From NCBI GenBank assembly GCA_043810925.1, contig JBDRNT010000107.1, forward strand, positions 1-16,681: DNA of 16,681 nt, read 5' to 3'. The DNA comes from Candidatus Eiseniibacteriota bacterium. Lineage in GTDB: Bacteria > Arandabacterota > Arandabacteria > Arandabacterales > Arandabacteraceae. The notes beneath the pieces were generated by a model. The model was not told the origin of the DNA. It was given only the letters and a program-made list of their open reading frames with translations, and searched no databases. A program made the translations under genes and the position numbers. Positions 1 to 16,681 of this stretch are shown here, piece after piece (within the stretch, counting starts at the first letter, position 1; the number at the start of each line of letters is the position of its first letter).

Positions 1-72
1 AAGGAGCTCACATTGCGTTCCCAACACCAAGACGTTAGGGACGCCGCAAATGAGGTCACAAAACGCTTAATT

Positions 73-1416: not shown

Positions 1417-1452
1417 GTTTGGGAGTATAAAGGCATCGGCACATTATGGCAT
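1417..1452 (-). promoter_or_regulatory. Putative sigma70-type promoter for a leaderless MATE transcript
   Basis: The minus strand reads ATGCCA (1452-1447), 17 nt, TATACT (1429-1424), 7 nt (CCCAAAC), ATG (1416). There is no Shine-Dalgarno between the -10 box and the start codon. Confidence 0.5.
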
Positions 1453-1506
1453 CTAAAGAATTGCATTTGAGATGCTGATTTGAGATAAAGTAAATAGAGA
1501 AACCAT

Positions 1507-1512
1507 AGGAGG
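1507..1512 (+). promoter_or_regulatory. Shine-Dalgarno site for the 98-aa ORF
   Basis: AGGAGG, 6 nt upstream of ATG 1519. Confidence 0.85.
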
Positions 1513-1518
1513 CGTTAT

Positions 1519-1815
1519 ATGCCGAAGTTCGAAAAGATCCTCGTTGTCAACAGCCAGATTGAAGCGAAGATCCTTGAAGGAGTCCTCAAGGAACACGACA
1601 TACCGCATCTCATTAAGTCGTATCACGATTCCGCATACGACGGGTTATTCCAAGCCCAGAAGGGTTGGGGCCACATAGCCGCCCCCGCTGAATACAAGGA
1701 CGAAATAAAGGCCCTTTACAAGGGTGTACAGGAGCGGATCCTCATCGAAGAGGAAGAGCTAAACCAGGAGCCCGGAAATGGCGACGAATCTAACGAAGGC
1801 CCGACCTTCGCGTAG
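1519..1815 (+). CDS. Small DUF2007-like (putative signal-transducing, PII-like fold) protein, 98 aa
   Basis: Strong RBS. Pattern 'N.IEA.IL.GVL.EHDIP..IKSY.DSAYDGLFQ...GWG.I.....Y...I..L' resembles DUF2007-type proteins; acidic C-terminal tail. Family assigned by recognition only. Confidence 0.65.
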   Translation: MPKFEKILVVNSQIEAKILEGVLKEHDIPHLIKSYHDSAYDGLFQAQKGWGHIAAPAEYKDEIKALYKGVQERILIEEEELNQEPGNGDESNEGPTFA

Positions 1816-1990
1816 GGCCCTCTAACGCTCCCGGATGGCTCCTGTGGGCGCTACTGCGGCGCGAGAGGTCGCGTAACGGAACAAGCATATCTATTAGGGG
1901 TTATATGAAGATAGCGGGGACTATCTTACTGCGCCAACTTCCCTCCCGGCGCTTTGATTCTGTCTACGGTACATACGAGGATCCGGTGTT

Positions 1991-4900
1991 ATGAGATGCC
2001 CGGAGTGTAGAACCGATAATTCCGATACAAGCCGCTTCTGCATGAGCTGCGGCACGAGGCTCGCCAGGCAGTCGGACTCACATCTGTCCGACACTCAGGC
2101 TATGAAGACCTACGAGGTGAGCTCGGCCGAGGGAGAGACCTTCGCAGGCAAGTATCGCATTATCGGGGACCTGGGCCGAGGCGGCATGGGTGTCATCTAT
2201 AAGGCGGAAGACATCAAGCTTAAGCGGCCCGTGGTGCTTAAGTTGCTGCCGCCGGAGCTCACCCGCGACACCGAAGCCCGGCAACGCTTCATGCAGGAGG
2301 CGCGCGCGGCATCTGCTTTGGATCACGCCAACATCTGCACCATCTACGAGATTGATGAAACCGAGGACGGTCAGATGTATATCGCCATGGCGTATTACCC
2401 GGGTAAGACCCTAAAAGAGAAGATCGAGCACGGACGGCTCAAAGTGAAAGAGACCGTCGAAATAGCCATACAGATCGCCGGAGGCTTGGCACGAGCCCAT
2501 GAAGCGGGAATAGTCCATCGCGATATAAAGCCCGCGAACATCATTGTCACGGATCGGGGCGAAGTTAAGATTCTGGATTTCGGTCTTGCGAAGCTGGCCG
2601 GACAGCAGGATCTGACGCAGGTAGGCATAGCGATGGGCACCGTTATTTATATGTCACCCGAGCAGGCGCGCGGCGAGGAGACCGATGGCCGGACCGATAT
2701 CTGGGCCCTGGGCGTAGTCCTCTATGAAGTGCTCAGCGGACGGCAACCCTTCCGAGGCGATCGTGACCAGGCTGTTGTTTATTCCATCCTAAACGAGGAT
2801 CCCGAGCGGCTTTCATCGATCCGGCCCGATGTACCGGCGACACTCGAACGGATTGTCCACAAGGCCATGACCAAGCCGATGGCGGGCAGATATCCCGGCG
2901 CAGAGAACTTACTGAGCGATCTAAAGGACCTTAAGACCACCGGGGGTGCGGGTGCTCAGGCTGAGACCGCAAGGGTCGCGGTCGCCGAGTCCAGGGCCGT
3001 GCCGCTCTCCGACCAGAAGCCGATCGCGGTCATAAGTTTTGAGAATCTGACCGGTGACCCCGCATACGACTACCTGCGGAAGGCGATCCCCAACCTGCTT
3101 ATCACAAGTCTTGAGCAATCCAAGTACCTGCGAGTTCTCACCTGGGAAAGGATGTACGATCTCCTCAAGCAGTTGGGGAAGGAACAGACAGAGATCATAG
3201 ACCGTGATCTGGGCTTTGAGCTCTGCCGGATGGAGGGTGTGGATTCCATCGTTGTCGGGAGTTATGTCAAGGCCGGTGACATGTTCGCCACAGACGTCAA
3301 GGTGCTGGACGTGGACACAAAGAACCTCGTCAAGAGCGCGAGTTCAAAGGGCGATGGTGTCGACAGCATCCTCAGGGAACAGATAGATGCGCTGAGCCGA
3401 GAAGTCTCAACCGGACTCGGAGTACTGGATACCACCAGGGCCCGGGGCTTGCCAATCGCGGAAGTTGCGACGGCATCGATGGAGGCATATAACTGGTTCC
3501 TCAAAGGCATAGAAGAGTACGAGAAGCTATACAACGATGAAGCGCGCCGGTCGCTTGAGAATGCCGTAGAGCTCGATCCCACATTCGCGGCTGCGTACCT
3601 TTACCTCGCCTGGACACATAACAGGCTACGCGAGGTGAAGGCCGAGCACAAGGCTTTCGAGAAAGCCAAGACATATGCAGGCAAGGCGACCAGGAAACAG
3701 AGGTTGTACATCGAAGCCGAATATGCACGCGCCATAGAGCAGGATGAGGATAAGCGACTTCGGTTACTCAAGCAGATCGCGGAACGCTATCCCGATGAGA
3801 AACGGGCACGCCACTTGATCGCGGCCCATTACAGGGCAAGGAACCACCTCTATCAGGCTGTGGAGGAGTATAAGAAGGTACTTGAGCTCGATCCCAACTA
3901 CGGATGGGCTATGAACGAGCTGGCATACATGTATGCGGATACCGAGGCTTTTGATAAGGCCGCCGAGTATCTCGAACGCTATGCGACCGTGTCCCCCGGC
4001 GATGCGAACCCGATTGATTCGATGGGCGAGCTCTACTTCAGAATGGGCAAGCTCGACGAGGCTATTGCGAAGTACAAGGAGGCTCTTGAGCTGAAGCCTG
4101 ACTTCTACTATGCCTACTGGGAGATCGCTTACATCGAGGCGCTCAAGGAGGACTATGAGGAGACTCTCGCCTGGGTAGACCGCTTTATAGAAAAATCTCC
4201 ATCTCCCGCTACAAGGGCAGGCGGTATCCTGTGGAAATGCTTCTATCTCTATTGGCGTGGCAGTCTGGACCGGGCGCTTGAGGAAGCCCAGAAGACAGCG
4301 GACCTGGCAGAGGAATCCGGTAACAAGCTGTGGAGGGTGGAGGCCGACCGGATGCGCGGGTGGATTTGCCACGATAAGGGCGCACTTGAGCTGAGCCGCA
4401 AGTGTTTCCAGAATTGCATTGATTCGGTTAAGGCTGAACCGAGGGCGTATGTTCCGGTTTCCACGAGCTACTCCACGGGTCTTGTGGAAGAGACCCGCAA
4501 ACTGACGGCCTCTTTTGACTTCTCACTCGCCCTGGTGGATCTAAGAGAAGGCGATGTTGAGGCGGCACGGACAAGACTGGAACGGATCAAACCCTTGCTG
4601 CCCGATTATTACTGTCTGCTCCACGGCGAACTCCTGCTGGCCGAGGACACACCTGATAAAGCCATCACCGTATGCGAAAAAGCGCAGCGTTGGAAGATAC
4701 CGTACATGAGCGACCGCGACAGCATGCTGACCTACAATCTGCCACCGCTTAAGGACGCTCTTGCGCGTGCCTTCCTCAACAAGGGTGATCTTGGTCGGGC
4801 GACAGACGAGTACGAAAGGCTGACCACCATGCGCGAGGGGACCGGCGAACGTCAGCTCATACATCCGAAGTACCATTTCCGCCTGGCGGAATTATACAGT

Positions 4901-5032
4901 GAGACGGGACAGGCGGACAGGGCGCTTACGGAATACGAGCACTTCCTCGATCTCTGGAAACATGCGGATCCCTCCTACCGCGAAATCAGGGTCGCCCGGG
5001 ACTGTGTCCGGCGGGCTGAGAGACAGACATAG
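1991..5032 (+). CDS. Hanks-type Ser/Thr protein kinase with N-terminal zinc ribbon, TolB_N/FlgO-like domain and C-terminal TPR array (1013 aa)
   Basis: CPEC...CMSC zinc ribbon. Intact kinase motifs GRGGMG, VVLK, HRDIKPAN, DFG, GT..YMSPE, DIWALG. 'IAVISFENLTGD' alpha/beta domain. Many TPR-like repeats (A.ELDP.FA.AY, LELDPNY.WA, ALELKPDF..AY). No signal peptide or TM helix seen. GAGG at 1977-1980. Confidence 0.93.
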   Translation: MRCPECRTDNSDTSRFCMSCGTRLARQSDSHLSDTQAMKTYEVSSAEGETFAGKYRIIGDLGRGGMGVIYKAEDIKLKRPVVLKLLPPELTRDTEARQRFMQEARAASALDHANICTIYEIDETEDGQMYIAMAYYPGKTLKEKIEHGRLKVKETVEIAIQIAGGLARAHEAGIVHRDIKPANIIVTDRGEVKILDFGLAKLAGQQDLTQVGIAMGTVIYMSPEQARGEETDGRTDIWALGVVLYEVLSGRQPFRGDRDQAVVYSILNEDPERLSSIRPDVPATLERIVHKAMTKPMAGRYPGAENLLSDLKDLKTTGGAGAQAETARVAVAESRAVPLSDQKPIAVISFENLTGDPAYDYLRKAIPNLLITSLEQSKYLRVLTWERMYDLLKQLGKEQTEIIDRDLGFELCRMEGVDSIVVGSYVKAGDMFATDVKVLDVDTKNLVKSASSKGDGVDSILREQIDALSREVSTGLGVLDTTRARGLPIAEVATASMEAYNWFLKGIEEYEKLYNDEARRSLENAVELDPTFAAAYLYLAWTHNRLREVKAEHKAFEKAKTYAGKATRKQRLYIEAEYARAIEQDEDKRLRLLKQIAERYPDEKRARHLIAAHYRARNHLYQAVEEYKKVLELDPNYGWAMNELAYMYADTEAFDKAAEYLERYATVSPGDANPIDSMGELYFRMGKLDEAIAKYKEALELKPDFYYAYWEIAYIEALKEDYEETLAWVDRFIEKSPSPATRAGGILWKCFYLYWRGSLDRALEEAQKTADLAEESGNKLWRVEADRMRGWICHDKGALELSRKCFQNCIDSVKAEPRAYVPVSTSYSTGLVEETRKLTASFDFSLALVDLREGDVEAARTRLERIKPLLPDYYCLLHGELLLAEDTPDKAITVCEKAQRWKIPYMSDRDSMLTYNLPPLKDALARAFLNKGDLGRATDEYERLTTMREGTGERQLIHPKYHFRLAELYSETGQADRALTEYEHFLDLWKHADPSYREIRVARDCVRRAERQT

Positions 5033-5054
5033 ATCCCCACGCTCCGCAGGTTTC

Positions 5055-5185
5055 TGTGTCACTGCGAGGAATGAAGTGACGAAGCAATCCCCTTGGTGTG
5101 CATCAGACGAGATTGCCGCGGCTTCTTTGGAGCCTCGCAACGACACATCCATGTGTCGGATCGTCACGCCGCGCCCGCGATGACA
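5055..5185. repeat. Palindromic REP/RPE-like intergenic element plus a degenerate second right arm; possible bidirectional terminator
   Basis: Outer inverted repeat TGTGTCACTGCGAGG (5055-5069) / CCTCGCAACGACACA (5133-5147), 13/15 complementary. Inner GCAATC (5084-5089) / GATTGC (5111-5116). Resembles the widespread GTCATTGCGAGG..GACGAAGCAATC..GAGATTGC..CTCGCAATGAC palindrome family. Lies between convergent stop codons. Confidence 0.75.
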
Positions 5186-5196
5186 TAGCCTTGATG

Positions 5197-8100
5197 TTAC
5201 TTTATGCGGAGACGGAAACGGATCGAGAAGCTCGGGTTGTTCCCCCCACTTGCAGCGTTGAACTGCCCCTTGAGTTTGATTTCGAAGCTGACGACGGCGC
5301 TGTCATAACCGTCGGGGTCCGGTGAGGGGAAGTATTCGCCGGATGAATCGTAGAAGATGATATCATCCAGTACGCTGTCAAGAGCGATAAAGGTATAGGT
5401 GAGACCGCTTGCAGTGGTGCCGTCCGTAAACTCCACAGGACCTGAGCCTGCGACCGTGAGATCATCTACGTAGAGCTCCGTATTCGCGGGGATCGAATCC
5501 GTGAGAACCACTGTGTCGTTATCGGTGGGACCGTTACCCTGGTTAAAGGCGGCGATCGTGCAATCAACTTCGGCACCGGGTATCGCCTTGGGATTCACGC
5601 CTCCGCTAAACGGGTCGGAATAGGTATCCACCGACTTGGCCATTACGATGTCGGGCGAGAGTCTCGTCACAGGGTCGGTCACACCGAACTCGGAGGTGTT
5701 ACCGTTACTGTCGGTTGCCGTCGCAGTAACAGGGTCGCCGTCGCTCAGGGAAACGGCAGCCGGGACTGTGAGATCGGCGGTGAATGTACCGTCGGCATTT
5801 GTCGTGAAACTCCCGATATAATAGCGCCCCTCGCCGTGGGGCACGCTCTGCCCGTCGCCGGCTTCGATTTCGCCATTGTTGTTGCCGTCATCGTCTGCCT
5901 TGAACACTTCGACGGTGTGCGTACCGGCCAGAGGACTGGCCGCTGTGCCGACATAGCCCTCGACATGGAGAACGGGGCCCGCGAGCGTGACAAGGGTGAA
6001 TACGGGATAGTCGAACCCGTCGTTCTGTTCGCCGATCACCCACACTCCATCATTGGGAGTCACACCGTCCCCGTTGGGATTACCGACAAGAGTCGTCTGG
6101 TCGAGATCGATACTGATGCTGCCGTTACCATAGGTTGCGTTCTTGGAAATCGTATTGTCGGCCGATGCCCCGGCAGTCCCCCTCGGTACGACAATCCCGG
6201 CCCCGACGGCACCCGTTATGACATTGTAACGAATCTGGTTGCCCGTGCCGAAAACGCGGATACCACCCGTTTCGCCCTGTGCGCCCACAATCCCCGTGTT
6301 TAGGACCGTGTTGTGCTCGAAAGTGTAAGGACCGGGAGCCTGCCAGGATTCGAGACCATAGGCCGTCACCGTCTCGACGCGGTTCGCTCTGATCGTAATA
6401 GCCTGCCCGCTGCTTCCTTCAACCGAGACACCGTCACCCAACGGGAAGTCAAAGCCGATGTCGTAGATATCGTTCCAACCGGTGAGTGAAGTGTTCTGGA
6501 GCATGATGCCGGAAGAACGGATATGTGCCACTAAATTGGCTATTACTGAGGCCGTACCACCCGTGACGTCTACTCCTGTGGTCAAGCGTAAGCCAGCGCC
6601 GGGATCGGTGCCGTCAGCCCGTGTGCCTATGAAGTTCAATATGATCCAGCTACTGGTTCCACCGGTCACGAGCATTCCGCAGTTGTCCGGAGCACCAAGG
6701 ATGGCTAAGCTCTGCACGATGATGTTATTGCCGGCCACCTGGAGAACATCGCCGAAGCCCCCGCCATTGATCTCAAGCTCTGGCCTTTGGTATTGGGGCA
6801 GGGTGAGCTCATCCCCGGTGCCTTCGATACCGTCGACACCGGTACCTACGCTCTGGCCACTGTGCCCGGCCGTACCCGGATTGAGATCGCGCACGGTAGT
6901 ACCATCGACATAGCTACGGGCAATCCCGTTAAGCGTTGTGGCGCCGTCCGTTATCGGGGGCAGGGCAGATGTGAGGACTGCCGTCCACCAGTCTCCACCG
7001 CTTCCGCTTGTGGTTGTGGAGGCAACCGGCACAAAGCGCATGGCGTTTGGACCTGCAACGGCGTTAGCATTCTGGAGTAACTGGCGCAGACTTCCCTGCA
7101 CCGACCGGTTGGCTCCAAGATCGTCATCGCCGTCACGGACGTGCGTGACCACATTGAAACTCATACCGAAGTCGACGGCCCCTCTGTCGCTGGTGGTCAC
7201 GGTCACCCTCGTCACATGCTCTGCCGTGCCAAGGTTTGCAGCATTGTCCGATGTGCTGCCGTTTCGTCCACCATAACAGGGTCCGGAAATCGGAAGCACA
7301 ATGAACCCGCTCAGGCCGTCAGGATCATCGCACAAAGTACCCCCTGCACCATATGTTTGCTCGGCCCAAACATCACCCTGGACGAAACCTCCGCCCAGGC
7401 CTGTATTCGGTGAAACTGTCTTCGAGTCGAGAACTATCCAGTAGCTTGCGGCCCACAAGCCGCTGAAAGTGTACGAACCGGCGATGTCGGTTACTGTGCT
7501 TGCGATGAGCACATCATCTGTACCGTTGGCAAGTCCGTCCCCCCCATCTCGATAAAGGCGAACCGTCGCTCCCGGCGTAGCGGGGTTTCCGACATCACCA
7601 GGTAACTGCAGACCCGCCAGGGCATCCCCCACAAGGTCTTCGAAGACAGTTCCGGATACGGAGTGGCAACCACCCGGCTCCTCAAGCCCTACGGAGTACA
7701 CTGGCTCATTGGAAACGTAGTTGCCCACGGCGATCCAGTCGATATAGTAGTACCAACCACCCCGCATAGTGACAAGGGTGAAAGAGGAATATGTTGCATC
7801 GGTCCCTGACATGGACCCTATCAGCGCATGGTTGTTATTGTACAAGGTCGCGGTGATGTTGTTAGCACCCGAACCATAGCGCGTTAGCTCCGTGATGTAC
7901 CAGTTGTCGTAAGGTTGGTTGAGGGTGGTCAGAACCGAAGATCCTCCAACTCCGCCGGTCCTCCGTTCAACGCCAAAGCTGCCTATACCCACCACGTCGG
8001 CTAGCCTCCGGATCGTATAGCCATTGAATAAGTTATCCTCCACGCCATATCGGTTCCACGTTCCGCCATCCACCTCGTTCCTGCGGTGGTCACGCGCGAT

Positions 8101-8661
8101 CAGTCGGAAATCCGAGATGGATGTGCCCATTGACTTCCATCCGCCGTTGGGGTCGTTGTTTGACTGTTTTCGGAGTACCGGGAAACCGAAAGTGCCCGCG
8201 TCCTGCACAACGCTCCCCGAACCGTAGTTGTTCCAGCCAGCCCAGGCCGTGAAGTCGTCGAAGAAGACGAATGTGGCCGGGCCGTTGCTCGTTGTAGTGA
8301 CGGCGGCATTACCGTAATACATATAAATGGTCTGCACCGACGATGCCGGCAAACTTGGTAACTCAACCCAGGCGATGGCGGATGTCGATGCGGTGTACTG
8401 CTCGATCCAGTAATCGATCTCGGTGGTGTCGTCCGACAACGTGAACCTCAAATCGGCGAAGTTGATATCCATTCCGGCTTCATAAGACACATCTATCCGG
8501 ACTTGATAATTCGTGAGATTAAGGGCGGCCTGCTCGGTAACCGTGATCGGCTTGCGGTAAGTCCAGCCACAGAGCCAGGCGGCACGCGCGAAGGTCGGGA
8601 ACAGGACACACAGCAGCGAGATGGCAAACAGCACGCCCCTCAGTCTCAGGCTTGTCCTCAT
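5197..8661 (-). CDS. Large secreted adhesin-like protein: DUF2341/lectin-like, SdrD-B-like, right-handed beta-helix, C-terminal truncated DUF11 (putative fibre tip)
   Basis: Start placed at ATG 8661 (GGAG 6 nt upstream) rather than GTG 8673. Signal peptide MRTSLRLRGVLFAISLLCVLFPTFARA. DUF2341 motifs W.YRKPITV, DLRFT, I.YWIE, IYMYYGN, F.FFDDF. SdrD-B-like VSGTVFED..PGATVRLY..TD..GSYTFSGL. GSLRQ..NAN followed by beta-helix repeats; IDL...GVTPND; TATATD..GNTSEF; DIVMAKS..PGA..LTDSIP. Confidence 0.85.
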   Translation of the reverse strand: MRTSLRLRGVLFAISLLCVLFPTFARAAWLCGWTYRKPITVTEQAALNLTNYQVRIDVSYEAGMDINFADLRFTLSDDTTEIDYWIEQYTASTSAIAWVELPSLPASSVQTIYMYYGNAAVTTTSNGPATFVFFDDFTAWAGWNNYGSGSVVQDAGTFGFPVLRKQSNNDPNGGWKSMGTSISDFRLIARDHRRNEVDGGTWNRYGVEDNLFNGYTIRRLADVVGIGSFGVERRTGGVGGSSVLTTLNQPYDNWYITELTRYGSGANNITATLYNNNHALIGSMSGTDATYSSFTLVTMRGGWYYYIDWIAVGNYVSNEPVYSVGLEEPGGCHSVSGTVFEDLVGDALAGLQLPGDVGNPATPGATVRLYRDGGDGLANGTDDVLIASTVTDIAGSYTFSGLWAASYWIVLDSKTVSPNTGLGGGFVQGDVWAEQTYGAGGTLCDDPDGLSGFIVLPISGPCYGGRNGSTSDNAANLGTAEHVTRVTVTTSDRGAVDFGMSFNVVTHVRDGDDDLGANRSVQGSLRQLLQNANAVAGPNAMRFVPVASTTTSGSGGDWWTAVLTSALPPITDGATTLNGIARSYVDGTTVRDLNPGTAGHSGQSVGTGVDGIEGTGDELTLPQYQRPELEINGGGFGDVLQVAGNNIIVQSLAILGAPDNCGMLVTGGTSSWIILNFIGTRADGTDPGAGLRLTTGVDVTGGTASVIANLVAHIRSSGIMLQNTSLTGWNDIYDIGFDFPLGDGVSVEGSSGQAITIRANRVETVTAYGLESWQAPGPYTFEHNTVLNTGIVGAQGETGGIRVFGTGNQIRYNVITGAVGAGIVVPRGTAGASADNTISKNATYGNGSISIDLDQTTLVGNPNGDGVTPNDGVWVIGEQNDGFDYPVFTLVTLAGPVLHVEGYVGTAASPLAGTHTVEVFKADDDGNNNGEIEAGDGQSVPHGEGRYYIGSFTTNADGTFTADLTVPAAVSLSDGDPVTATATDSNGNTSEFGVTDPVTRLSPDIVMAKSVDTYSDPFSGGVNPKAIPGAEVDCTIAAFNQGNGPTDNDTVVLTDSIPANTELYVDDLTVAGSGPVEFTDGTTASGLTYTFIALDSVLDDIIFYDSSGEYFPSPDPDGYDSAVVSFEIKLKGQFNAASGGNNPSFSIRFRLRIK

Positions 8662-8673
8662 ACGTGGCTCCAC

Positions 8674-11600
8674 TTAGATCCTTCCATTGACTTCGTGTGT
8701 CAACGGTGCAAGCGAGTCGATCAGATCACGCACAGATTGCTGATCCACCTTTAACTTCAGCCGAATGAACGGTCCTCTTGCAGTGAAACTCCCGCCGGAA
8801 AACTCCTCGTCCTCAAAACCGAATATGTTATAGCCGGTGCTCACCCAGACATTTTTCATGATGTTCAAGCCCAGGGATAGACCTGTACTGTAGTCAAACT
8901 GATTCGCGTTCCAGGAGTGAAGGACGCCGCCACGGATGCCAACATCCCATCTCGGGGTCAGACCCCGGCGGGCCTCCAATCCCATGAGGTCCGTGTACCC
9001 GCTGCAGAGTATGCCGTCGAAATCGCGTGTGACATACTTCGCACCGTACTGAAGTGACATCTGTGTCGCTTCACTTGGTTTGAAGTTGAGGCTGATGTTA
9101 TTGATGATCTTACGGCTGTCCATGTCCGATGCCGGAGCGTCCCGGTTGGCCACCTCAAGCTCCATACGATCAAGCAAGGTCCACTTCGAGGCTACCGGTC
9201 TGTAGACCATCCCGAGCCTCAGGTTGCTGCTGATTGTGTATACACCTAAAGACGATATTGCTCTGAGAACCTGGGCGGCCGCCGACATACCAAGACCGTC
9301 GCGGGGCTCGCCGAAGATACCCGACGCGACCATCCACTTATCTTCGTCGTCCGCATAGCGCAGTTCGACCCGTGTGTTCGCCGTCCACCTTTCCTCGCGA
9401 TATGCCGTCCCGAGGGAGACCGCCGTAAAGTCGTCGCCACCACCGGATGACGGCGGAACGTCGGTATCGAAACGCGTATTCCCGGGGTGCCTGACGGTCC
9501 GGCTGTGATCCATACCCGCGTCCACGCTCCATCGCGGGCCGATAAGCCACGCCTGCTTGAGACCGAGATTGGCAAAGACGCGGGCACCGTTTTCGGTGTA
9601 CCGCCGCCCAAGCGACGATCTTACGCTTGCACCCATCCATGGAGTTGCCTTCAGTCCAAGCCGTGAACCCTGTGTATTCTCATTCTCTCCCCACGTAAGC
9701 TCATGCTCGGCGAAAACGCTCACCGGTTCGGCCAGCTTGTAATCGGCGCCCATGGTGGTACGTGTGGGGAAGTCAGGATTGGCGTCGTAGCCTCCCAGAG
9801 ACTGATCGTGATCAATTCTCACATGCAGCCGGTTACCAAAGACGCTGCAACCGGCACCGGTCGTAACCTGGCTTGAGCGGTACACCGTCCCGTCGCCGAG
9901 CCTGTCTCTGGCATAGCGGAATCCGGCACGGAGGCTGTGCCCGGCTTTGTTGAAGTTGAGCCTGGTCTCGCCGACGTCACGTTCGGCGTCGGCGGAGAGG
10001 TTGCGCTGGCGATATGCCTGGCTGTCGATGGAAAGATGCGGGTTGAAGTGATGACCGACATCAATTCCGAGTTTCTGTGTGCCGCTTTCGCTTTGGTTCT
10101 GTTGCCCGAGTCCGAAACCGTCGTCCTGCTCACGCATATAGACTCTGGCATCAAGTTGCATCGAACGATGCTTGAACTCAGCAACATAAGCGTCACCCTC
10201 CGCACTGCCTGAAACGAGGTCTGTCCTGCTCGTAGCATACTCAGCCTTAAACTCACTGCTTCCATTGAGTTTGAAGGTGGCATCTACACCGAGGAGGTCC
10301 CCGTCGCCCCCTTCCTGGCCTTCATGGAGGTATGTTGCGCCGACTTCGAGCGTGCGGTGGAGCAGTTTCCGCGCACCACGACCACCATAGCTGTATGACC
10401 TGTCCGAGCTATCGCAGGACTCGAAGTCTATAACGACGGTAACGGGGTTGAGCTGGCCGTCCTTGCTCGGCACCGGCTCCTTGAAGAAGAGTGTGCCTGC
10501 ATTGTAATCGATGTTGTAGTCGATATGACGCGTAAGATTGCGCGAATCGAGTATGATCTCGCTGTGGAAACGGTCGCGGGTTTCGATGGCGACTTTCTCG
10601 GAGTTGACCACGATGCTACTGCGTGAGAGACGGTATATTCCCGAAGTACCGTCCCCGCGGATCTCATCTTTCACGAATGCCTGGTCGGTTTGACTGACAA
10701 ACACGTTGACTGAGTGGTCTTCGGTCCGCAGCTCAGACTTAAGACCGTTTAGACTACGGCTGTAGCGCGAAAGCTCCGTAATCGTGAGGCCGGTGGTGAA
10801 GTCCCCGAACACGGCATAGAATTGACGACGTTCGATTTTAAGGTAGAGTTTCTGCACACTCGGGGTTTCATAGTCCTGCCGTGTGGCATCACCGTACAGA
10901 GTATAGTATTCATCAGGATCGATTGTCTGAAACAGGCTGTTACCGGCCTCGGCCTTGCGCTTCTCGCTGTCGTAGGCCAGTGTGAGGAGCCACTTGCCTT
11001 TGATCCTACCCTTTGCAAAAAGAGCAACGCGACCATCACGGTAAAGATCCTCCTCGACACCTGCTTCGGTATGGTTGTCCATGTGCTCTTCAATGGTGTT
11101 GTAGCCCACTGTCCCGTCGGCCAGACCCACAAGTATCCAGTCACGTTCCTCAGGGCTCAGCCACGCACACAGTTCCCGCTCGCCATCAACAAACCGGAAC
11201 CTGAGGACCACTTCACCTGCGCTCGAGGTCGGCTCGAGTTCGACAAACGCGACTCCGTCCGCACCGACTGTGAAACGCGGTTCACGGCGGTCCGCACCCG
11301 TGAGGGGAAATCTCCGGTATGCTTCCTCTTCCCAGCGCGCTATGTAGGGTGCATCAACGGAGAACCTACCTACCACACCTGCACGGGCCGGGTAGCCATC
11401 CCCATCAGTCAGCCGGAAGGCTATGACAGGGGGATACTTGCCGTTGGCGACCAGGCGTGACTCCTCGGAAACCAGTTCGACTGCGACCGGCAGACCGGAG
11501 TAATGGATGGTCCGCGTGAGGTGCGCAGATTCCCGGCGCTCGCCATCGTATACGATTATCTCAAAGTGGTTGTCTCCTTCTTCAAGATCCACACCCGTCC

Positions 11601-14600
11601 ACCGGCTCATCGCCACGGTACCCGTAGTGTTCTCTACCGTCTCGTCGAAGTTGACCCGACTGACCTGCCGGCCACCCAGAAGCAATTCAAGCCGGTCTCC
11701 TGGATCGTGCTTGACGATAACCTCAAGACTCGGAATCGGTGGACCGTAACCCGGTTCGGGCCACAGCCATTCGAGACCGGGTTCGGCGCTATCAAGCCAG
11801 GCAAGGCCATACTCGGGAGCTGTCTGTGGCAACCGGTGAACCGGGTGGAAACCCGACTCCGTACCTGACCGGTCCCCGTCCGGTCCAGGCCCGGTTGTCC
11901 CGGTCACAACCCGGTCATGCCGTTTAACGGTCTCAAGGGCAACCTCGCTCGTTCCTTCCATTGCGGTCACAAGCGCCTCGACACGCCTATTGAGAGCACG
12001 TCCCCGGGGCGTGTCATTTCCTGCAAGAGGCTCGTCCGGGCCCTTTCCCGCGACCGTTACCTGTGATGGGGCCAGCCTGAGACTGTCTGCCAGGTAGTCA
12101 CCGACACTCTTCGCGCGTGCCAGTGACAGGGCATAGTTGTCGCGGAAGAGATAGCGGCTTCGCTCACGTATCGGACGGCTGTCGGTGTGGCCCTCCGCAT
12201 GTATCTGTGTCACCTCCGACCCCTCGAGGACACCGACAAGGCGATTCAGCTCGTCCCTGTCTACACGACCCAGCTCGGCGCTCAGTGTCGCGAAGTGCGG
12301 ACGCACCGTGAATCTCCGCTGGCTCAACAGCTGTTTTCTGTCTAACGCTAAACGGTTTTCGACGACAGGTGTTTGCCTGTCCCCGCCACCGGGAGTGTCA
12401 AAAACCAGCAGGGCCTTCGTAATCAGTTCGTGTGATGCGGATTCGGTATCCACAGCCGCCTTGAGCGAAATGTGCTTTGCCCATCCGGCGGCCGTATCGC
12501 CAAGCCGGTAGGTGATCACATTGCCGGTGATATCCGGGTCCCGTGTGACCGCATCTTCCTGCCGGCTGCTCCCGGCGACGTAGGTGATGCCGTCCGGAAG
12601 CATTAACAGGAGCCGCAGGTCACCGAGCGGTACGACTTCTCCCGAAAGTGCTACCACGTAGTCGACCGTGTCGCCACCGGCCCGGCTCGTGAGGTCAAGG
12701 CTCACCATACCCTCAACCCTGGGTTTCCGGATCAACCGGAAGTCGGCGCGCCACTGGCTGCCGCCCGCAAGATCGACAAACTGCGAGTAAGTGCGTCCGG
12801 CAAACCAGTTGTTCTCACCGCACGCTGTGACTTCATACCCATCGGGGAGACTTTCGAGATCGACCTGTACAACATGGACCCCCGGTGAGACACCTTCGAA
12901 GTGAAACATCCCGCGCTCATCGGTAATCACCCAGGTGCCGTCCTCAAGATATATGCGTACGCCTTTTACGCCGTCACCATGAATCTCACCCACAGTGTCG
13001 CAGGAATCGGCTGTCACGCTGCCCACTATGAAACACATTGTTCGGAAGAGATCCTCAGTCACCCTTACCCGGGCGTCGGCGGTGTTTGAAGTCACCCCTC
13101 CACCACTCACTGCGAAGGCCACATTGACGGCCTCACCGAGCCGTGCTCCCGCTGCGACCTCTGCAAGATACCGGATACGTACCGCAGCTCCTGCATCCAT
13201 CCGGCCCAGCAAAAACATCAGCGTTCGTCCGTCGGCGGAAACGTCCGGGTCGGAGGCGTGGTCACCATCGATCTCGCCTGAACCTGCCTGATACCGGAAA
13301 CCCGCGGGCAGTCTATCCGTCACCACGACGTCGGGTAGCGGGCTCGCACCGGTGTTTTCAACTGTCAGGCAGTACTCGATGAAATCACCGATGGCGACGG
13401 CAAGTTCATTCACGGTCTTGCTGATATGGAGATCGCCGCCTGCCGGATCGATCGGGAAATCGATGCGTGAAGCAAACATGCACTCGATTTCAAACTCTCC
13501 GCCGCGTGAGCCCGGTTCGACGATCGCAAAGGGTGCTCCGGGAAGTGCCTGCAAGTCCGGTGTCGGGACGTTCGATGGTGCGGTGTAGCCGGCCTGCGGT
13601 ACTACTTCGAGACGGTAGGTGCCCGGCTCGGGGAAAGGAAACCTGAAGCCGCCGGGTGGGAAATGATACTCACTGCCGCCGGCATCAGTGGCCGTGCCAC
13701 CCGAGGTCACCGTCGACGGGAAGATGCTGACACCATCATCTCCGTAGACAGTCGCAGGCAGCCCGGTGTCGGCATCGATGAGTGAGACGGCGACATCGCT
13801 TACCGGCTGACCGGTTCTACTGTCAAAGACGGTCCCGCACGCATCCATCCAGGCAATCGCGGTCGAAGCATCGCCGGCATCCTCGACGTCGACATAGCTC
13901 GCGACAATATCGTGTTCACTTCCTACCGTGAGCATACCGTTGTTCGCGATCGGTGAATCGTCGCTCGACGCTTCGATGTACCCGGCAAACACGCCCGTAT
14001 CCGGTCCCGTCTCTCTGAGACACAGGAGCTCGCTCTCTCCCAGAGGACTTACGGTAACCCTCACCATGACCTGCTCGGAAACCTGGGGAGTGAGGTTCTG
14101 ATCCTGATCCGATAACCGCAGAAAGACCGGCTCGTCCGTGCGATATAGCCCGGTCGATATGAGTGGTACAGTTGAGCCCGGATCGAGTGGACCGGCCCCG
14201 CCACCGAGCGTTGGGGGAGGTAGTGGAACAAATGGGCCGTCGCCGGTACCGGTGACACTATAGTACGTGATCGAAATCCGCACCGGTTCCGCACCGGCAC
14301 ATTTCGGTGCGTACCGCATGAATTCAAGAACGGACCGGGTCCGGCTGAGAACGGTTATCAAGGTGACTGGATTGGAGGGTGTCTGGATGGCACCTGTGCC
14401 GCCCGCGGCATAGACCGCCATGGCGGTATTATCAATCTGGGTGCCCGGAGGAACAGCATGGCTTGAGGCCGGTAAGAGAAGCGTCAGGAGCAGGATCAAG
14501 CCATTAAGACGTACGGACGGCAGTCCCCACCCCTTGCGCCCGAAGAAGCGAAACTGGACATTCTCATCCCTCGAAGAGGCGTGCAGCTCGGCACTCCGGG

Positions 14601-14658
14601 CACGAAACCACCCGGGGAGCCGCACACCCCGACACAAGGATTGCCGGAGGAGCTCCAT
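8674..14658 (-). CDS. Very large outer-membrane protein (1994 aa): Ig/DUF11 domains, central OmpA-like peptidoglycan-binding domain, large C-terminal predicted beta-barrel
   Basis: Hydrophobic signal ending ASSHA. LRETGPDTGVFAG motif. Carboxypeptidase-regulatory/SdrD-like domains (GTVFDSRTGQPV; GVKGVRIYLEDG..TD.RG.FHF). Complete DUF11 at about 13060-13435. OmpA motifs EGHTD, N..LS.ARA.SV, G.G...P...N.T..GRA.NRRVE at about 11970-12300. The last ~800 aa are rich in alternating amphipathic strands. Exact start uncertain. Confidence 0.85.
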   Translation of the reverse strand: MELLRQSLCRGVRLPGWFRARSAELHASSRDENVQFRFFGRKGWGLPSVRLNGLILLLTLLLPASSHAVPPGTQIDNTAMAVYAAGGTGAIQTPSNPVTLITVLSRTRSVLEFMRYAPKCAGAEPVRISITYYSVTGTGDGPFVPLPPPTLGGGAGPLDPGSTVPLISTGLYRTDEPVFLRLSDQDQNLTPQVSEQVMVRVTVSPLGESELLCLRETGPDTGVFAGYIEASSDDSPIANNGMLTVGSEHDIVASYVDVEDAGDASTAIAWMDACGTVFDSRTGQPVSDVAVSLIDADTGLPATVYGDDGVSIFPSTVTSGGTATDAGGSEYHFPPGGFRFPFPEPGTYRLEVVPQAGYTAPSNVPTPDLQALPGAPFAIVEPGSRGGEFEIECMFASRIDFPIDPAGGDLHISKTVNELAVAIGDFIEYCLTVENTGASPLPDVVVTDRLPAGFRYQAGSGEIDGDHASDPDVSADGRTLMFLLGRMDAGAAVRIRYLAEVAAGARLGEAVNVAFAVSGGGVTSNTADARVRVTEDLFRTMCFIVGSVTADSCDTVGEIHGDGVKGVRIYLEDGTWVITDERGMFHFEGVSPGVHVVQVDLESLPDGYEVTACGENNWFAGRTYSQFVDLAGGSQWRADFRLIRKPRVEGMVSLDLTSRAGGDTVDYVVALSGEVVPLGDLRLLLMLPDGITYVAGSSRQEDAVTRDPDITGNVITYRLGDTAAGWAKHISLKAAVDTESASHELITKALLVFDTPGGGDRQTPVVENRLALDRKQLLSQRRFTVRPHFATLSAELGRVDRDELNRLVGVLEGSEVTQIHAEGHTDSRPIRERSRYLFRDNYALSLARAKSVGDYLADSLRLAPSQVTVAGKGPDEPLAGNDTPRGRALNRRVEALVTAMEGTSEVALETVKRHDRVVTGTTGPGPDGDRSGTESGFHPVHRLPQTAPEYGLAWLDSAEPGLEWLWPEPGYGPPIPSLEVIVKHDPGDRLELLLGGRQVSRVNFDETVENTTGTVAMSRWTGVDLEEGDNHFEIIVYDGERRESAHLTRTIHYSGLPVAVELVSEESRLVANGKYPPVIAFRLTDGDGYPARAGVVGRFSVDAPYIARWEEEAYRRFPLTGADRREPRFTVGADGVAFVELEPTSSAGEVVLRFRFVDGERELCAWLSPEERDWILVGLADGTVGYNTIEEHMDNHTEAGVEEDLYRDGRVALFAKGRIKGKWLLTLAYDSEKRKAEAGNSLFQTIDPDEYYTLYGDATRQDYETPSVQKLYLKIERRQFYAVFGDFTTGLTITELSRYSRSLNGLKSELRTEDHSVNVFVSQTDQAFVKDEIRGDGTSGIYRLSRSSIVVNSEKVAIETRDRFHSEIILDSRNLTRHIDYNIDYNAGTLFFKEPVPSKDGQLNPVTVVIDFESCDSSDRSYSYGGRGARKLLHRTLEVGATYLHEGQEGGDGDLLGVDATFKLNGSSEFKAEYATSRTDLVSGSAEGDAYVAEFKHRSMQLDARVYMREQDDGFGLGQQNQSESGTQKLGIDVGHHFNPHLSIDSQAYRQRNLSADAERDVGETRLNFNKAGHSLRAGFRYARDRLGDGTVYRSSQVTTGAGCSVFGNRLHVRIDHDQSLGGYDANPDFPTRTTMGADYKLAEPVSVFAEHELTWGENENTQGSRLGLKATPWMGASVRSSLGRRYTENGARVFANLGLKQAWLIGPRWSVDAGMDHSRTVRHPGNTRFDTDVPPSSGGGDDFTAVSLGTAYREERWTANTRVELRYADDEDKWMVASGIFGEPRDGLGMSAAAQVLRAISSLGVYTISSNLRLGMVYRPVASKWTLLDRMELEVANRDAPASDMDSRKIINNISLNFKPSEATQMSLQYGAKYVTRDFDGILCSGYTDLMGLEARRGLTPRWDVGIRGGVLHSWNANQFDYSTGLSLGLNIMKNVWVSTGYNIFGFEDEEFSGGSFTARGPFIRLKLKVDQQSVRDLIDSLAPLTHEVNGRI

Positions 14659-14673
14659 ACTGCCAGAGCCCCC

Positions 14674-15798
14674 TTAATCCACGGTCACGTCAAAAGTAAT
14701 CTGAGCAGTACCTGTACCTGAATCCACAACCGAATTCGTCACCCTGATATAGGCAACAGGCACGGTCTCGGCCGGGAACCAGCTCAGCCCATCGGTCGAG
14801 TATTCTACCGTGATCGTGGCCCCTACGTTACTGTTCGAGGTCGTCACCGACCCACTCACATATGTAGTGTTCGCGGGAATCTGGTCCACGGTGATCACAT
14901 TGTCGGCATCGGTGCTGCCACTGTTGGATATGTCAACGGTGTAGCGTATGGTTGCACCCGGAATCGCCTTGGGATTGACCGCGCTGAACGGATCGCTGAT
15001 CACAGCTTGTGACTTGGTAACTGTGAGATCGGCGGATTCGACTTCGTAGTCATCCTGATCCGAGTGCTTGCCGTCATACTGTGCATCCCCTGCGGCCGTA
15101 CCAGCGGCGTCAGCAAAGACAACCTGCACTGTTGCGCTGTTCCACGCGCCTACATCAGCCGTTGTAAGTGCGCCAAGCGAGCCGCCGGCGCCGGCGTCGT
15201 GAATGGTCGCCACCAGGTGGTAGGATGCGATTTCACCATCCGCAGCTGTGAGCGGCGCATCTAGCACGACAAACACATCGTAGTAGCTGTTCGCCGGGAG
15301 CTCATCAATATAGTTAGCGACATCAACACCATTGGTGTACGAACCCGGAGCGTCCACAACTGAGTTGACGAAAATGCGCGTCGTGGGTACCGGCTCCGGC
15401 GTCATGTCGAACGCATCGGTGCCTCCGAACTTGCCAGGATTTCCCGTTGCAACTGTAACGACGCTCAGTGAGCAGTCCTGCGCAGTGTTTCCTGTGTTGG
15501 TGACTCTGACAGTCAGGACGTTATATTGCGCACTGGCGAACTGAGAACCGGGAGTCACTATGACTTCGCTCACATCCTGGGTCACCACGGTAAGGTCGAC
15601 CTTGTTATCCACCAGGAAATTCACACTGCTTGAGAGCTGTGTCTGATCTATACCGCCCACCTGATAGTCGAGGAGTGCGGTGTTACCGATGTTTGTGCCT
15701 GAAGCAGTACCGAGTGCCATGGCCGCTTGCGGTATTAACAATGCGAATGCACAGGTACACAGCAGGCCGAGTGCACACAGTTTAGATATTGACTTCAT
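14674..15798 (-). CDS. Secreted DUF11-domain protein, 374 aa (putative major fibre/shaft subunit)
   Basis: AGGAGG (15811-15806) 7 nt before ATG. Signal peptide ending AMA. Mature N-terminus LGTASGTNIGNTA. Internal Ig-like domain (DLTV..PG..VTNTGN). C-terminal DUF11 ADLTVTKS..PGATIRYTV.ISNSG..A.NV..VDQIP...YV.GS..ITFDVTVD*. Confidence 0.88.
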   Translation of the reverse strand: MKSISKLCALGLLCTCAFALLIPQAAMALGTASGTNIGNTALLDYQVGGIDQTQLSSSVNFLVDNKVDLTVVTQDVSEVIVTPGSQFASAQYNVLTVRVTNTGNTAQDCSLSVVTVATGNPGKFGGTDAFDMTPEPVPTTRIFVNSVVDAPGSYTNGVDVANYIDELPANSYYDVFVVLDAPLTAADGEIASYHLVATIHDAGAGGSLGALTTADVGAWNSATVQVVFADAAGTAAGDAQYDGKHSDQDDYEVESADLTVTKSQAVISDPFSAVNPKAIPGATIRYTVDISNSGSTDADNVITVDQIPANTTYVSGSVTTSNSNVGATITVEYSTDGLSWFPAETVPVAYIRVTNSVVDSGTGTAQITFDVTVD

Positions 15799-15809
15799 CT
15801 CTTCCCCTC

Positions 15810-16307
15810 CTACTGTAACTTAGCCCTGAATGCTACATATCCTGCCGTCGAAGGCAGCAGCGTGTCTTCAAACGTCCAGCAGATATGCGTGTAGTCGGAT
15901 GCGTTGGCCTGACGCTGTTTGCCGTCGGCCTCTGCGACCTTGAGGTTTGTCGCCACATCGTAGGTCCTGCCACTATCCACAGAGAACGTAACCGTCGTGC
16001 CTCCCCCGGAGGCACTGCCGTCCGTGTAGATCATGTGGTCCGGGATCGCGTCGGTGATGACAACCCGCTCTGCGACGTCGTCGCCCACATTGGCGTAGTG
16101 GATCGTGTAGAGCACCTCATCGCCAGGGACAACCTTGGTGGCTTCAACCCGCTGAATCTCCTTTTTTCCTTCTTTGTTGATGACTTCCATTTCGATCTGA
16201 GCCGTGGTCTTAAGCTCGATGCTGCGTTCCGGGTCGGCACCAATGGCGCCGGCTTGGGCGAATACGACGAGCATCAAGATTAGACCAACAGCGCTGTTCA
16301 GTCTCAT
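15810..16307 (-). CDS. Small secreted single-DUF11-domain protein (165 aa)
   Basis: Start placed at ATG 16307 because AGGAGG (16319-16314) lies 6 nt upstream. Signal peptide MRLNSAVGLILMLVVFAQAGAIGA. Motifs VVPGDEVLYTI.Y.N.G...A..VVITDAIP....Y..GSA and V.FRAKLQ*. Confidence 0.85.
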   Translation of the reverse strand: MRLNSAVGLILMLVVFAQAGAIGADPERSIELKTTAQIEMEVINKEGKKEIQRVEATKVVPGDEVLYTIHYANVGDDVAERVVITDAIPDHMIYTDGSASGGGTTVTFSVDSGRTYDVATNLKVAEADGKQRQANASDYTHICWTFEDTLLPSTAGYVAFRAKLQ

Positions 16308-16324
16308 CACTTCCCTCCTTTCCA

Positions 16325-16681
16325 TCAATCGATCACCACAGCGAATGTCACTGTCTGGGCGGGCGAACCCGCCGCAACATCACCCAGACTTACTGTGACC
16401 GTGCCGGGACTTGTCATCCCTACATCACCCTCGTCGGCATCCGCTTGATCCGTCAGAGGTCCCCCATTCAGCACCAGCGTGCCTGAGCTGTAGGTTGTGT
16501 GTGTCGGGATGGGATCCGTCAGAACCAGGCTTTCAGCAGTACCCGAACCCGAGACTGTAACGACCAGCGTGTAGGTGATGACAGCTCCGGGGACCGGCTC
16601 GGTACCGCCGAAGGGATCAGCCATCGTGGCAGACTTGACCACAGAGACCACCACATTGGATACCAGGTACGTACCGACATC
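16325..16681 (-). CDS. 3' end of a DUF11-domain protein, truncated by the window edge
   Basis: The frame is open to position 16681 (DVGTYLVSNVVVSVVKS...). Motifs VVKS..DPFGG.EPVPGAVITYTL.V...G...A..LVLTDPIP..TTY..GT and VTFAVVID*. Confidence 0.85.
   Translation of the reverse strand, partial: DVGTYLVSNVVVSVVKSATMADPFGGTEPVPGAVITYTLVVTVSGSGTAESLVLTDPIPTHTTYSSGTLVLNGGPLTDQADADEGDVGMTSPGTVTVSLGDVAAGSPAQTVTFAVVID

Follow-up and report, generated by a model that had tools for sequence, protein, structure and literature searches.

In a stretch of 16,681 nucleotides from a Candidatus Eiseniibacteriota bacterium (contig JBDRNT010000107.1, positions 1 to 16,681, referred to here as the window), five genes are arranged head to tail on the minus strand from position 16681 to 5197, separated by gaps of at most 15 bases or by small overlaps. 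This operon most likely encodes a diderm surface fibre whose subunits would be assembled by donor-hairpin complementation. In its candidate shaft subunit P0001, an immunoglobulin (Ig)-like domain of the DUF11 family, also named CLIPPER, is split, with one part at either end of the chain, and the split also separates three residues that occupy the positions of the spontaneous Lys-Asn isopeptide bond of intact domains. Sequence features and structure predictions suggest that in the fibre this bond would form between chains, linking Asn39 of one subunit to Lys262 of another in the vicinity of Asp305, a reading to which we assign a probability of about 60%. A DUF11-type element (TIGR01451 or PF01345) is present in all five encoded proteins, termed P0001 to P0005 (Table 1).

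P0001 starts with a signal peptide, followed by a hairpin, a middle Ig-like domain and a C-terminal DUF11 domain. The latter is recognized by TIGR01451 with 46.9 bits at a cut-off of 24, which makes DUF11/CLIPPER the fitting reference in place of the D2 domain of RrgB (TIGR04226) named in a first-pass annotation of this DNA, as the TIGR04226 model matches only P0004 and does so with 18.4 bits at a cut-off of 30. For comparison, we have built a profile of the canonical DUF11 repeat from the intact repeats of 34 giant repeat proteins, whose consensus reads DLSLTK ... VVVTDTLP ... ATVTFTVTVD NSLPDGTTITNTATV .... The C-terminal domain of the P0001 family (residues 252-374) covers columns 8-94 of the 138 columns of this profile, at which point the protein stops (hhalign, expectation value (E) 4.9e-17, probability 98.8%), and its mature N-terminus (residues 29-45) continues with columns 95-111 (hhalign, E 1.2e-4). 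In an alignment to the hidden Markov model (HMM), residues 30-70 extend over columns 95-134, and the N-terminal hairpin of the P0002 family occupies columns 95-129 (hhalign, E 1.1e-5), which locates the split of the canonical repeat into acceptor and donor between its columns 94 and 95. The families of P0004 and P0005 likewise stop at columns 93-96 (hhalign), and the N-terminus of the P0005 family contains a second match to columns 95-136. Hence, no contiguous stretch of P0001 holds a complete nine-strand CnaA-like sandwich. Among 79 aligned shaft proteins, comprising 78 sequences from species genomes and P0001 of the window, the chain end is located six residues beyond the equivalent of F369 in 72 cases and seven residues beyond it in six, and none of these proteins carries last strands of its own at the C-terminus. 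In the AlphaFold2 (AF2) model of P0001, which shows a mean predicted local distance difference test score (pLDDT) of 94.8 and a predicted template modelling score of 0.85, the hairpin is formed by strands 36-43 and 55-62, and a helix spans residues 6-20 in the region of the signal peptide.

The three residues in question are located at positions with a proven function in an intact domain of the same family. The structure of a DUF11 domain at 1.77 Å (9IFR), from a study in which the family was renamed CLIPPER, displays a bond between Lys715 on the first and Asn806 on the penultimate of nine strands with Asp748 beside it, and the mutation K715A destabilises the domain (PMC12617251). In an alignment that spans the domain (E 2.1), the canonical repeat places its Lys on residue 10 and the Asn of its NTA motif on residue 101 of the 9IFR chain, with its Asp one residue off residue 43. 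Using the offset given by the published range 708-828, these chain residues correspond to K715, N806 and D748. Lys262, Asp305 and Asn39 of P0001 are found on the K, D and N columns of the canonical HMM and at the equivalent positions of 9IFR, but they are split between the two chain ends. The same columns are occupied by K414, D448 (in a TDRLP motif) and N512 in the intact internal DUF11 domain of P0002, which, as had been recognized from the sequence, carries the whole triad in cis. The codons assigned in the first-pass annotation to the three P0001 residues, to Asn77 of P0002 and to the lysines of an IVMAK motif in P0003 and a VSVVK motif in P0005 were all six found where it had placed them (Table 1). 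Its further claim that the Asn of the NTA motif occurs exclusively on donor hairpins is valid for the homologous position but not for the string as such, as NTA is also found at residues 104-106 of P0001 and 525-527 of P0002, neither of which is homologous to the isopeptide Asn.

The relationship to isopeptide-forming domains is also reflected in the predicted fold. In a comparison of the AF2 model with VIA-align, residues 256-374 of P0001 resemble domains of Mfa5 (Z 8.6), RrgA (Z 7.8), GBS104 (Z 7.8), the Jo-In complex of RrgA (PDB 5mkc, Z 7.7) and SpaA (Z 7.7), all of which are values of middling grade; 9IFR is not among the matches listed. The middle domain, which contains no Lys at the first-strand position, resembles MG/CARDB-like sandwiches (Z 7-8.7), and its residues 66-106 show a weak HMM match to the start of DUF11. 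A sequence search of the PDB reached 9IFR neither with P0001 nor with the internal DUF11 domain of P0002, and weak matches of OprC to residues 171-255 of P0001 (E 0.0018) were taken as compositional. Searches with the whole P0001 model in Foldseek yielded merely tandem-Ig look-alikes, with template modelling (TM) scores of 0.2-0.33.

The triad is kept in homologues to an extent that exceeds chance. In 120 diverse members of the P0001 family (34-75% identity), Asn is conserved in 113, Lys in 118 and Asp in 118 sequences, and all three residues rank among the best conserved of the 374 columns of P0001. A similar picture is obtained for P0001-type proteins from species genomes (Asn 77/78, Lys 78/78, Asp 78/78), where 19 of 97 rows were left out due to their length or E-value. 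Since an insertion after strand 1 spoiled the HMM read-out in many rows, the Lys column was read from a MAFFT alignment. The distribution in the partner proteins follows their presumed roles: P0005-type adaptors retain Lys and Asp in 54 of 54 and the donor Asn in 43 of 54 cases, P0002-type anchors the Asn of their N-terminal donor in 56 of 56, with Lys, Asp and Asn kept together in the intact internal domain of 49 of 54, and P0003-type adhesins Lys as well as Asp in 36 of 38. The exceptions are few. One member of the P0001 family (P0198) has lost Asn and Lys together, one contains Asp in place of Asn, one results from an alignment shift and five lack Asn while retaining Lys and Asp, whereas in the adhesins both Lys and Asp are absent from the same two proteins (at loci L014 and L021). 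For comparison, the full triad is found in 681 of 743 canonical repeats. The stronger signal in these data is the buried Lys/Asp pair, which is kept at 98-100% in domains that do not contain an Asn of their own.

For the interaction between subunits, we have modelled two copies of P0001 (residues 29-374). Three runs gave scores of 0.74, 0.73 and 0.77, with the best of three controls reaching 0.01; they share at least 88% of their contacts, and the pLDDT of the partner is at least 91. In a benchmark, 20 of 30 solved same-chain pairs and 1 of 23 single chains attained the threshold of the tool, counts that apply here roughly, as a self-made alignment was fed to the two-copy model. The predicted interface is asymmetric and head to tail, with residues 257-266, 269-272, 275-280, 296-311 and 373-374 of one copy facing residues 30-49 and 55-66 of its partner, and it thus joins two strands (257-266 and 296-311), the loop 269-280 and the C-terminus of the acceptor with the hairpin and the base of the middle domain. 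Lys262, Asp305 and Asn39 are all contained in it. At the level of the model, each following subunit supplies through its N-terminal extension what the incomplete Ig-like subunit before it lacks.

Natural gene fusions point in the same direction. P0128, P0269 and P0270, three proteins of 696-700 residues from metagenomes, one of them encoded on a contig of 306 kb, are made of two consecutive subunits in head-to-tail order, the second of which has lost its signal peptide. A search for longer homologues of P0001 at an E-value of 1e-20 missed these fusions and is therefore uninformative. At their junction, the acceptor of the first and the hairpin of the second subunit form one continuous canonical DUF11 match (62-67 bits, from HMM position 16, 18 or 20 to 134), and the rebuilt domain holds Asp and Asn in cis. 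This connectivity is the one that is predicted by a model of insertion in trans. The division of roles in the operon leads to a similar expectation, as P0003 offers an acceptor without a hairpin and P0002 a hairpin without an open acceptor, which therefore could not be satisfied in cis. Together with the links between hairpin, middle domain and acceptor of P0001, which are as short as those between the repeats of tandem DUF11 arrays, the single-role partners, the two-copy model and the fusions favour an insertion in trans. The initial proposal of a triad split between chains is in this way supported by conservation, the mapping to 9IFR, the predicted interface, the operon partners and the fusions, which all agree.

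Several observations weigh against an inter-chain bond. PF01345 matches P0001 with 23.9 bits, slightly below its cut-off of 24.6, and the alignment to 9IFR is weak, as evident from its E-value. The complex score is the confidence of the model itself, obtained with a self-made alignment, and the three fusions share 70% identity with one another and thus probably reflect one evolutionary event. Moreover, the hairpin is predicted with a pLDDT of about 97 in the AF2 monomer, a very confident model that is compatible with a self-docked state. P0001 might accordingly be a monomer with a circularly permuted DUF11 domain, where its own hairpin docks into its own C-terminal domain, the middle domain is an insertion and the bond is intramolecular, as in RrgA D2 or GBS104, whose Lys and Asn are separated by a large domain. 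CnaA-like domains whose bond-forming residues are separated by large insertions have indeed been described (PMC12617251), and a side-by-side arrangement appears topologically feasible, as the termini of the Ig-like middle domain are about as far apart as the poles of the acceptor. We nevertheless regard such an arrangement as distinctly unlikely: the two-copy model selected an asymmetric head-to-tail interface in trans (0.74), P0003-type and P0002-type proteins each hold one half of the domain, the first acceptor of the fusions runs straight into the second hairpin with the connectivity of a canonical DUF11 domain, and the short links of P0001 are those of a tandem array.

A second group of unfavourable observations concerns the chemistry. 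In 60 canonical repeats without Lys, Asn is still kept in 56, which indicates a role beyond the bond and turns a conserved Asn, taken by itself, into weak evidence. Lys and Asp persist without a donor Asn in 11 of 54 adaptor-type proteins and in about 5 of 120 shaft-type ones, and consequently not all junctions can be covalent. The presumed partners of the Asn-free adaptors keep their Lys and Asp as well. In the two-copy model, the donor strand runs antiparallel to residues 298-304 in a register that is known to about one residue, and the side chains of Asp305 and Asn39 may or may not face each other. These features would fit a fibre that is assembled in trans but held together non-covalently, as in chaperone-usher pili, with the three residues being buried hydrogen-bonding groups inherited from a CLIPPER ancestor. 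We consider this improbable, if somewhat less so than docking in cis, as it is difficult to see why three acceptor families would retain a buried, unpaired Lys and Asp at 98-100% if these residues did not react. This conservation even exceeds that of the full triad in intact repeats, and where residues are lost, they are lost jointly, Lys with Asp in the adhesins and Asn with Lys in P0198. In engineered split CnaA/CnaB pairs such as SpyTag/SpyCatcher, isopeptag, SnoopTag and Jo-In, a strand bearing one of the reactive residues inserts into the remainder of a Cna-type domain, and the bond forms spontaneously after docking. We favour the isopeptide bond between chains.

In the mechanism that we propose, the acceptor domain of P0001, which is devoid of its last two strands, would be completed by the mature N-terminus of another subunit inserting these strands into the open domain of the preceding one, which would result in a head-to-tail chain resembling a tandem array of Ig domains. 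Insertion would set the incoming Asn39 beside Lys262 and Asp305 of the receiving chain, at the same three positions that serve the spontaneous Lys-Asn isopeptide of intact CLIPPER domains, and since Asn39 is in this way brought to the Lys262/Asp305 pair of another chain, a bond between chains would form with release of ammonia and without a sortase. The tip of such a fibre would be constituted by the acceptor-only adhesin P0003, followed by a paralogous adaptor of the P0005 type and the P0001 shaft, and its base by the donor-only giant P0002, which may be anchored through peptidoglycan binding by its OmpA-like domain and through a large outer-membrane barrel.

The predicted barrel comprises the last 845 residues of P0002, located downstream of the OmpA-like domain in the same chain, and shows about 30 long strands (AF2, mean pLDDT 78), interrupted near its start by a small beta domain that follows the first few strands (model residues 153-243). 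It does not belong to a Pfam family, and its fold matches, all of them weak, include SlpA, MtrB, LptD, TonB-dependent receptors and FimD (TM 0.16-0.27). An assignment as usher or as any other specific barrel family is not supported by these matches, as FimD (TM 0.23-0.27) is one among many large barrels, and based on the model we describe this C-terminus as a large outer-membrane barrel and nothing narrower. In P0003, no donor motif N[TS]A was found, and its acceptor is preceded by domains matching DUF2341 (81.7 bits), an SdrD_B-like domain and a right-handed beta-helix (31.5 bits). Full-length relatives of P0005, of which the contig end leaves a C-terminal part, contain about 330 residues.

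P0004 differs from the other acceptors. It matches DUF11 with 32.3 bits and ends after strand 7, and its family covers columns 12-93 of the canonical repeat only (hhalign). The copy in the window contains a Lys and a TDAIP motif, neither of which is kept by its relatives (Lys in 24 of 75, Asp in 4 of 75), and in 67 of 75 members Asn takes the place of the catalytic Asp within a TNPxP motif. Across the loci L001-L080, the relatives of P0004 are always located just upstream of the shaft gene. Proteins of this type could act as non-reactive holders or caps for donor hairpins. A broader and more tentative proposal, which in our estimate is rather less likely to hold than to fail, is that the operon represents an unrecognised, widespread class of diderm pili. 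Such a pilus would be a self-assembling covalent chain combining a natural tag (the hairpin with its Asn) and a natural catcher (seven strands with Lys and Asp), equipped with its own tip adhesin and adaptor, where P0002 would serve as anchor plus translocon, its barrel of about 30 strands holding the base and passing the fibre, and where the P0004-type protein, free of Lys and Asp, would be a decoy that holds hairpins reversibly in the periplasm until assembly.

Instead of a polymer, the same parts might form a stapled complex of fixed composition, one long stalk built of a single copy each of adhesin, adaptor, P0001 and anchor in series, all encoded by separate genes. This overlaps with the fibre, and the operon's three donors and three covalent-type acceptors would suffice for a 1:1:1:1 chain, with about 700 residues of stalk domains already contained in P0002. 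A single copy of P0001 seems a poor prospect, though, given that this subunit combines donor and acceptor, that the model supports its self-pairing and that a natural P0001-P0001 fusion exists, which all argue for a fibre with repeated shaft subunits.

The expectation that the bond would form without a sortase is in line with the genomic context. A search of the genome (91.7% complete) for the sortase family PF04203 gave no match, while positive controls were matched, and P0001 ends in FDVTVD, which is not an LPXTG-type sorting signal. Pfam searches of the five operon proteins with E-values up to 0.1 found neither a PapD-like chaperone nor an Usher family, and the same proteins gave no Pfam or NCBIfam match to TasA/camelysin.

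The five-gene operon recurs across diderm phyla. In contigs from one genome per species, relatives were confirmed at at least 564 of 597 candidate sites, with carriers that include Zixibacteria, Krumholzibacteria, Pseudomonadota, Nitrospirota, Desulfobacterota and Verrucomicrobiota. In 44 of 45 loci of at least 15 kb, the order P0004-type, P0001-type, P0002-type is maintained, the exception being an artefact of open reading frame (ORF) calling; an adaptor gene is located upstream in 36 and a P0003-type gene is present in 19 of the 45. As cultured strains of Novosphingobium and Lysobacter are among the carriers, including the non-pathogenic Novosphingobium arvoryzae KCTC 32422 (locus L043), the proposal is testable at the bench. 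Among sequencing runs, none of RNA was listed for the gene, and a single one of DNA shared a small part of its words.

How does the proposed fibre relate to known systems? The CLIPPER domain of 9IFR shares with it the family, the CnaA-like fold and the homologous Lys on the first strand, Asp, and Asn on the penultimate strand, and CLIPPER domains are also found in Gram-negative surface proteins with OmpA-like anchors. There, however, a single chain supplies all nine strands and the triad, and the bond stabilises that one domain, whereas P0001 ends after strand 7, and strands 8 and 9 with the Asn are located N-terminally, in P0001 itself as well as in other proteins, so that the bond would connect chains. 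Mechanistic parallels are offered by systems with other folds. BsaA of Clostridium perfringens, a member of the TasA family, polymerises independently of sortase by 'donor strand exchange and lock', with N35 on an N-terminal donor strand and K74 and the catalytic E56 on the acceptor; its oligomers resist heat and SDS and are lost in mutants (bioRxiv 10.1101/2024.11.04.621531). The same distribution, with Asn on the donor and Lys and acid on the acceptor, is shown by Asn39, Lys262 and Asp305, but BsaA differs in its TasA/camelysin fold, a Glu in place of Asp, one donated strand instead of a two-strand hairpin, its Gram-positive host, SipW processing and an anchorage without an outer-membrane barrel. 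The fold matches of P0001 are Cna-type domains.

In threads of Sulfolobus acidocaldarius, the donor-strand filament of Saci_0406 with proposed inter-subunit isopeptides, to which no known enzyme is ascribed, likewise combines donor-strand complementation with a covalent link, but there Asn57 of subunit n+2 is bonded to the alpha-amine of the N-terminal Asp24, and the system is devoid of a Lys/acid triad and a Pfam domain and belongs to an archaeal host without outer membrane (PMC9715654). Another fibre made covalent by autocatalytic bonds is the A-ENA 'sporesilk' of Bacillus thuringiensis, where proximity-induced intermolecular isopeptides result in a continuous covalent polymer, but its self-assembling subunits are alpha-helical hairpins with up to ten bonds each, located on a Gram-positive spore surface, without donor-strand complementation (PMC13111695). 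The idea of a covalent fibre that needs no sortase already has precedents in BsaA, archaeal threads and A-ENA. Chaperone-usher pili (type 1, P) show the same division into an acceptor-only tip, donor-plus-acceptor shaft and adaptor subunits and a donor-only base terminator, and also involve an outer-membrane barrel (PMC13721041). Unlike in these pili, no PapD-like or Usher match was found in the operon, where the barrel of P0002 is weakly FimD-like, two strands instead of one are donated, a covalent lock is proposed and anchor and barrel are fused. Sortase-assembled pili in turn are distinguished by a sortase gene and an LPXTG-type signal, neither of which was detected here. Finally, tag/catcher pairs of the SpyTag/SpyCatcher type were made by cutting natural intramolecular domains, whereas the split in P0001 would have arisen naturally, with a hairpin of about 34 residues as the tag and polymerisation as its use.

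What appears to be new is the split CLIPPER fold, the two-strand donor, the type of host and an operon with a barrel-bearing anchor. A full-text literature search, with subscription journals and supplementary files (including the tables of PMC12617251) outside its reach, returned no description of a DUF11/CLIPPER donor-strand fibre; PMC11821415, considered as a link between DUF11 and donor strands, concerns DUF1102. If the bond forms, it would, as far as the searched literature shows, define the first natural Cna-type isopeptide domain that is divided between polypeptides and the first donor-strand fibre with covalent links to be described in bacteria that possess an outer membrane. It would constitute a route of assembly beside chaperone-usher, type V and sortase pili, and the donors of shaft, adaptor and anchor would provide natural orthogonal tag/catcher pairs for protein ligation and for tough protein materials.

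Table 1. Operon genes, protein segments and neighbouring genes in the window (16,681 nucleotides), with the codons of the residues discussed.
Feature	Position	Strand	Remarks
P0005	16325-16681	-	C-terminal 118 residues of a P0001 paralogue, gene cut by contig end; from translation; acceptor Lys16 (VSVVK) at 16634-16636, Asp56 at 16514-16516
P0004	15810-16328	-	172 residues; secreted single acceptor-like DUF11 domain without donor hairpin
P0001	14674-15798	-	374 residues; candidate shaft subunit; from ORF and translation
P0001 signal peptide, 1-28	15715-15798	-	ends AMA before L29; read from sequence
P0001 donor hairpin, 29-62	15613-15714	-	equals last two strands of canonical DUF11; Asn39 (AAC) at 15682-15684
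P0001 middle Ig-like domain, 64-255	15034-15609	-	no Lys at first-strand position
P0001 acceptor DUF11/CLIPPER domain, 256-374	14677-15033	-	ends after seventh strand; Lys262 (AAG) at 15013-15015, Asp305 (GAC) at 14884-14886
P0002	8674-14658	-	1994 residues; candidate base anchor; Pfam and NCBIfam matches
P0002 donor hairpin, 67-102	14353-14460	-	Asn77 at 14428-14430
P0002 intact DUF11, 408-535	13054-13437	-	K414, D448, N512
P0002 OmpA-like domain, 789-891	11986-12294	-	
P0002 predicted C-terminal beta-barrel, ~1150-1994	8677-11211	-	AF2 model
P0003	5197-8673	-	1158 residues; candidate tip adhesin; Pfam matches
P0003 acceptor domain, ~1003-1158	5200-5667	-	K1013 (IVMAK) at 5635-5637, D1059 at 5497-5499
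Zinc-ribbon Ser/Thr protein kinase with TPR repeats	1991-5032	+	neighbour beyond operon
DUF2007 small protein	1519-1815	+	neighbour beyond operon
MatE efflux protein (transporter)	73-1416	-	neighbour beyond operon

The longest ORF of P0002 contains about 45 residues ahead of a hydrophobic signal segment (within its first ~66 codons, positions 14458-14658), and as its relatives align only from residue ~40-70, the true start is probably located further downstream. Heads of the P0003 type in other genomes comprise 320-1070 residues, and their genes flank the operon on one side or the other or run on the opposite strand. At the two loci whose adhesins have lost the Lys/Asp pair, L014 (9857-11680) and L021 (16817-18622), the acceptors contain Ser in place of Lys and Asn in place of Asp, and the adaptor-type donors Cys or Ser in place of Asn. 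Loss of the donor Asn in the adaptor compared with loss of Lys and Asp in the adhesin gives 2 of 7 loci versus 0 of 12 (p about 0.12), a difference that is not significant and that stems from rows that are not independent; it provides a hint that the adaptor hairpin may pair with the adhesin acceptor. An insertion after the first strand (residues 269-282 of P0001, within window positions 14884-15015) with the pattern SDPxNxxxNPKAIPGA is common to shaft and adhesin acceptors and missing from canonical DUF11 repeats. Within it, D269 is kept in 119 and P280 in 118 of the 120 members of the P0001 family, and in the two-copy model the loop contacts the middle domain of the next subunit.

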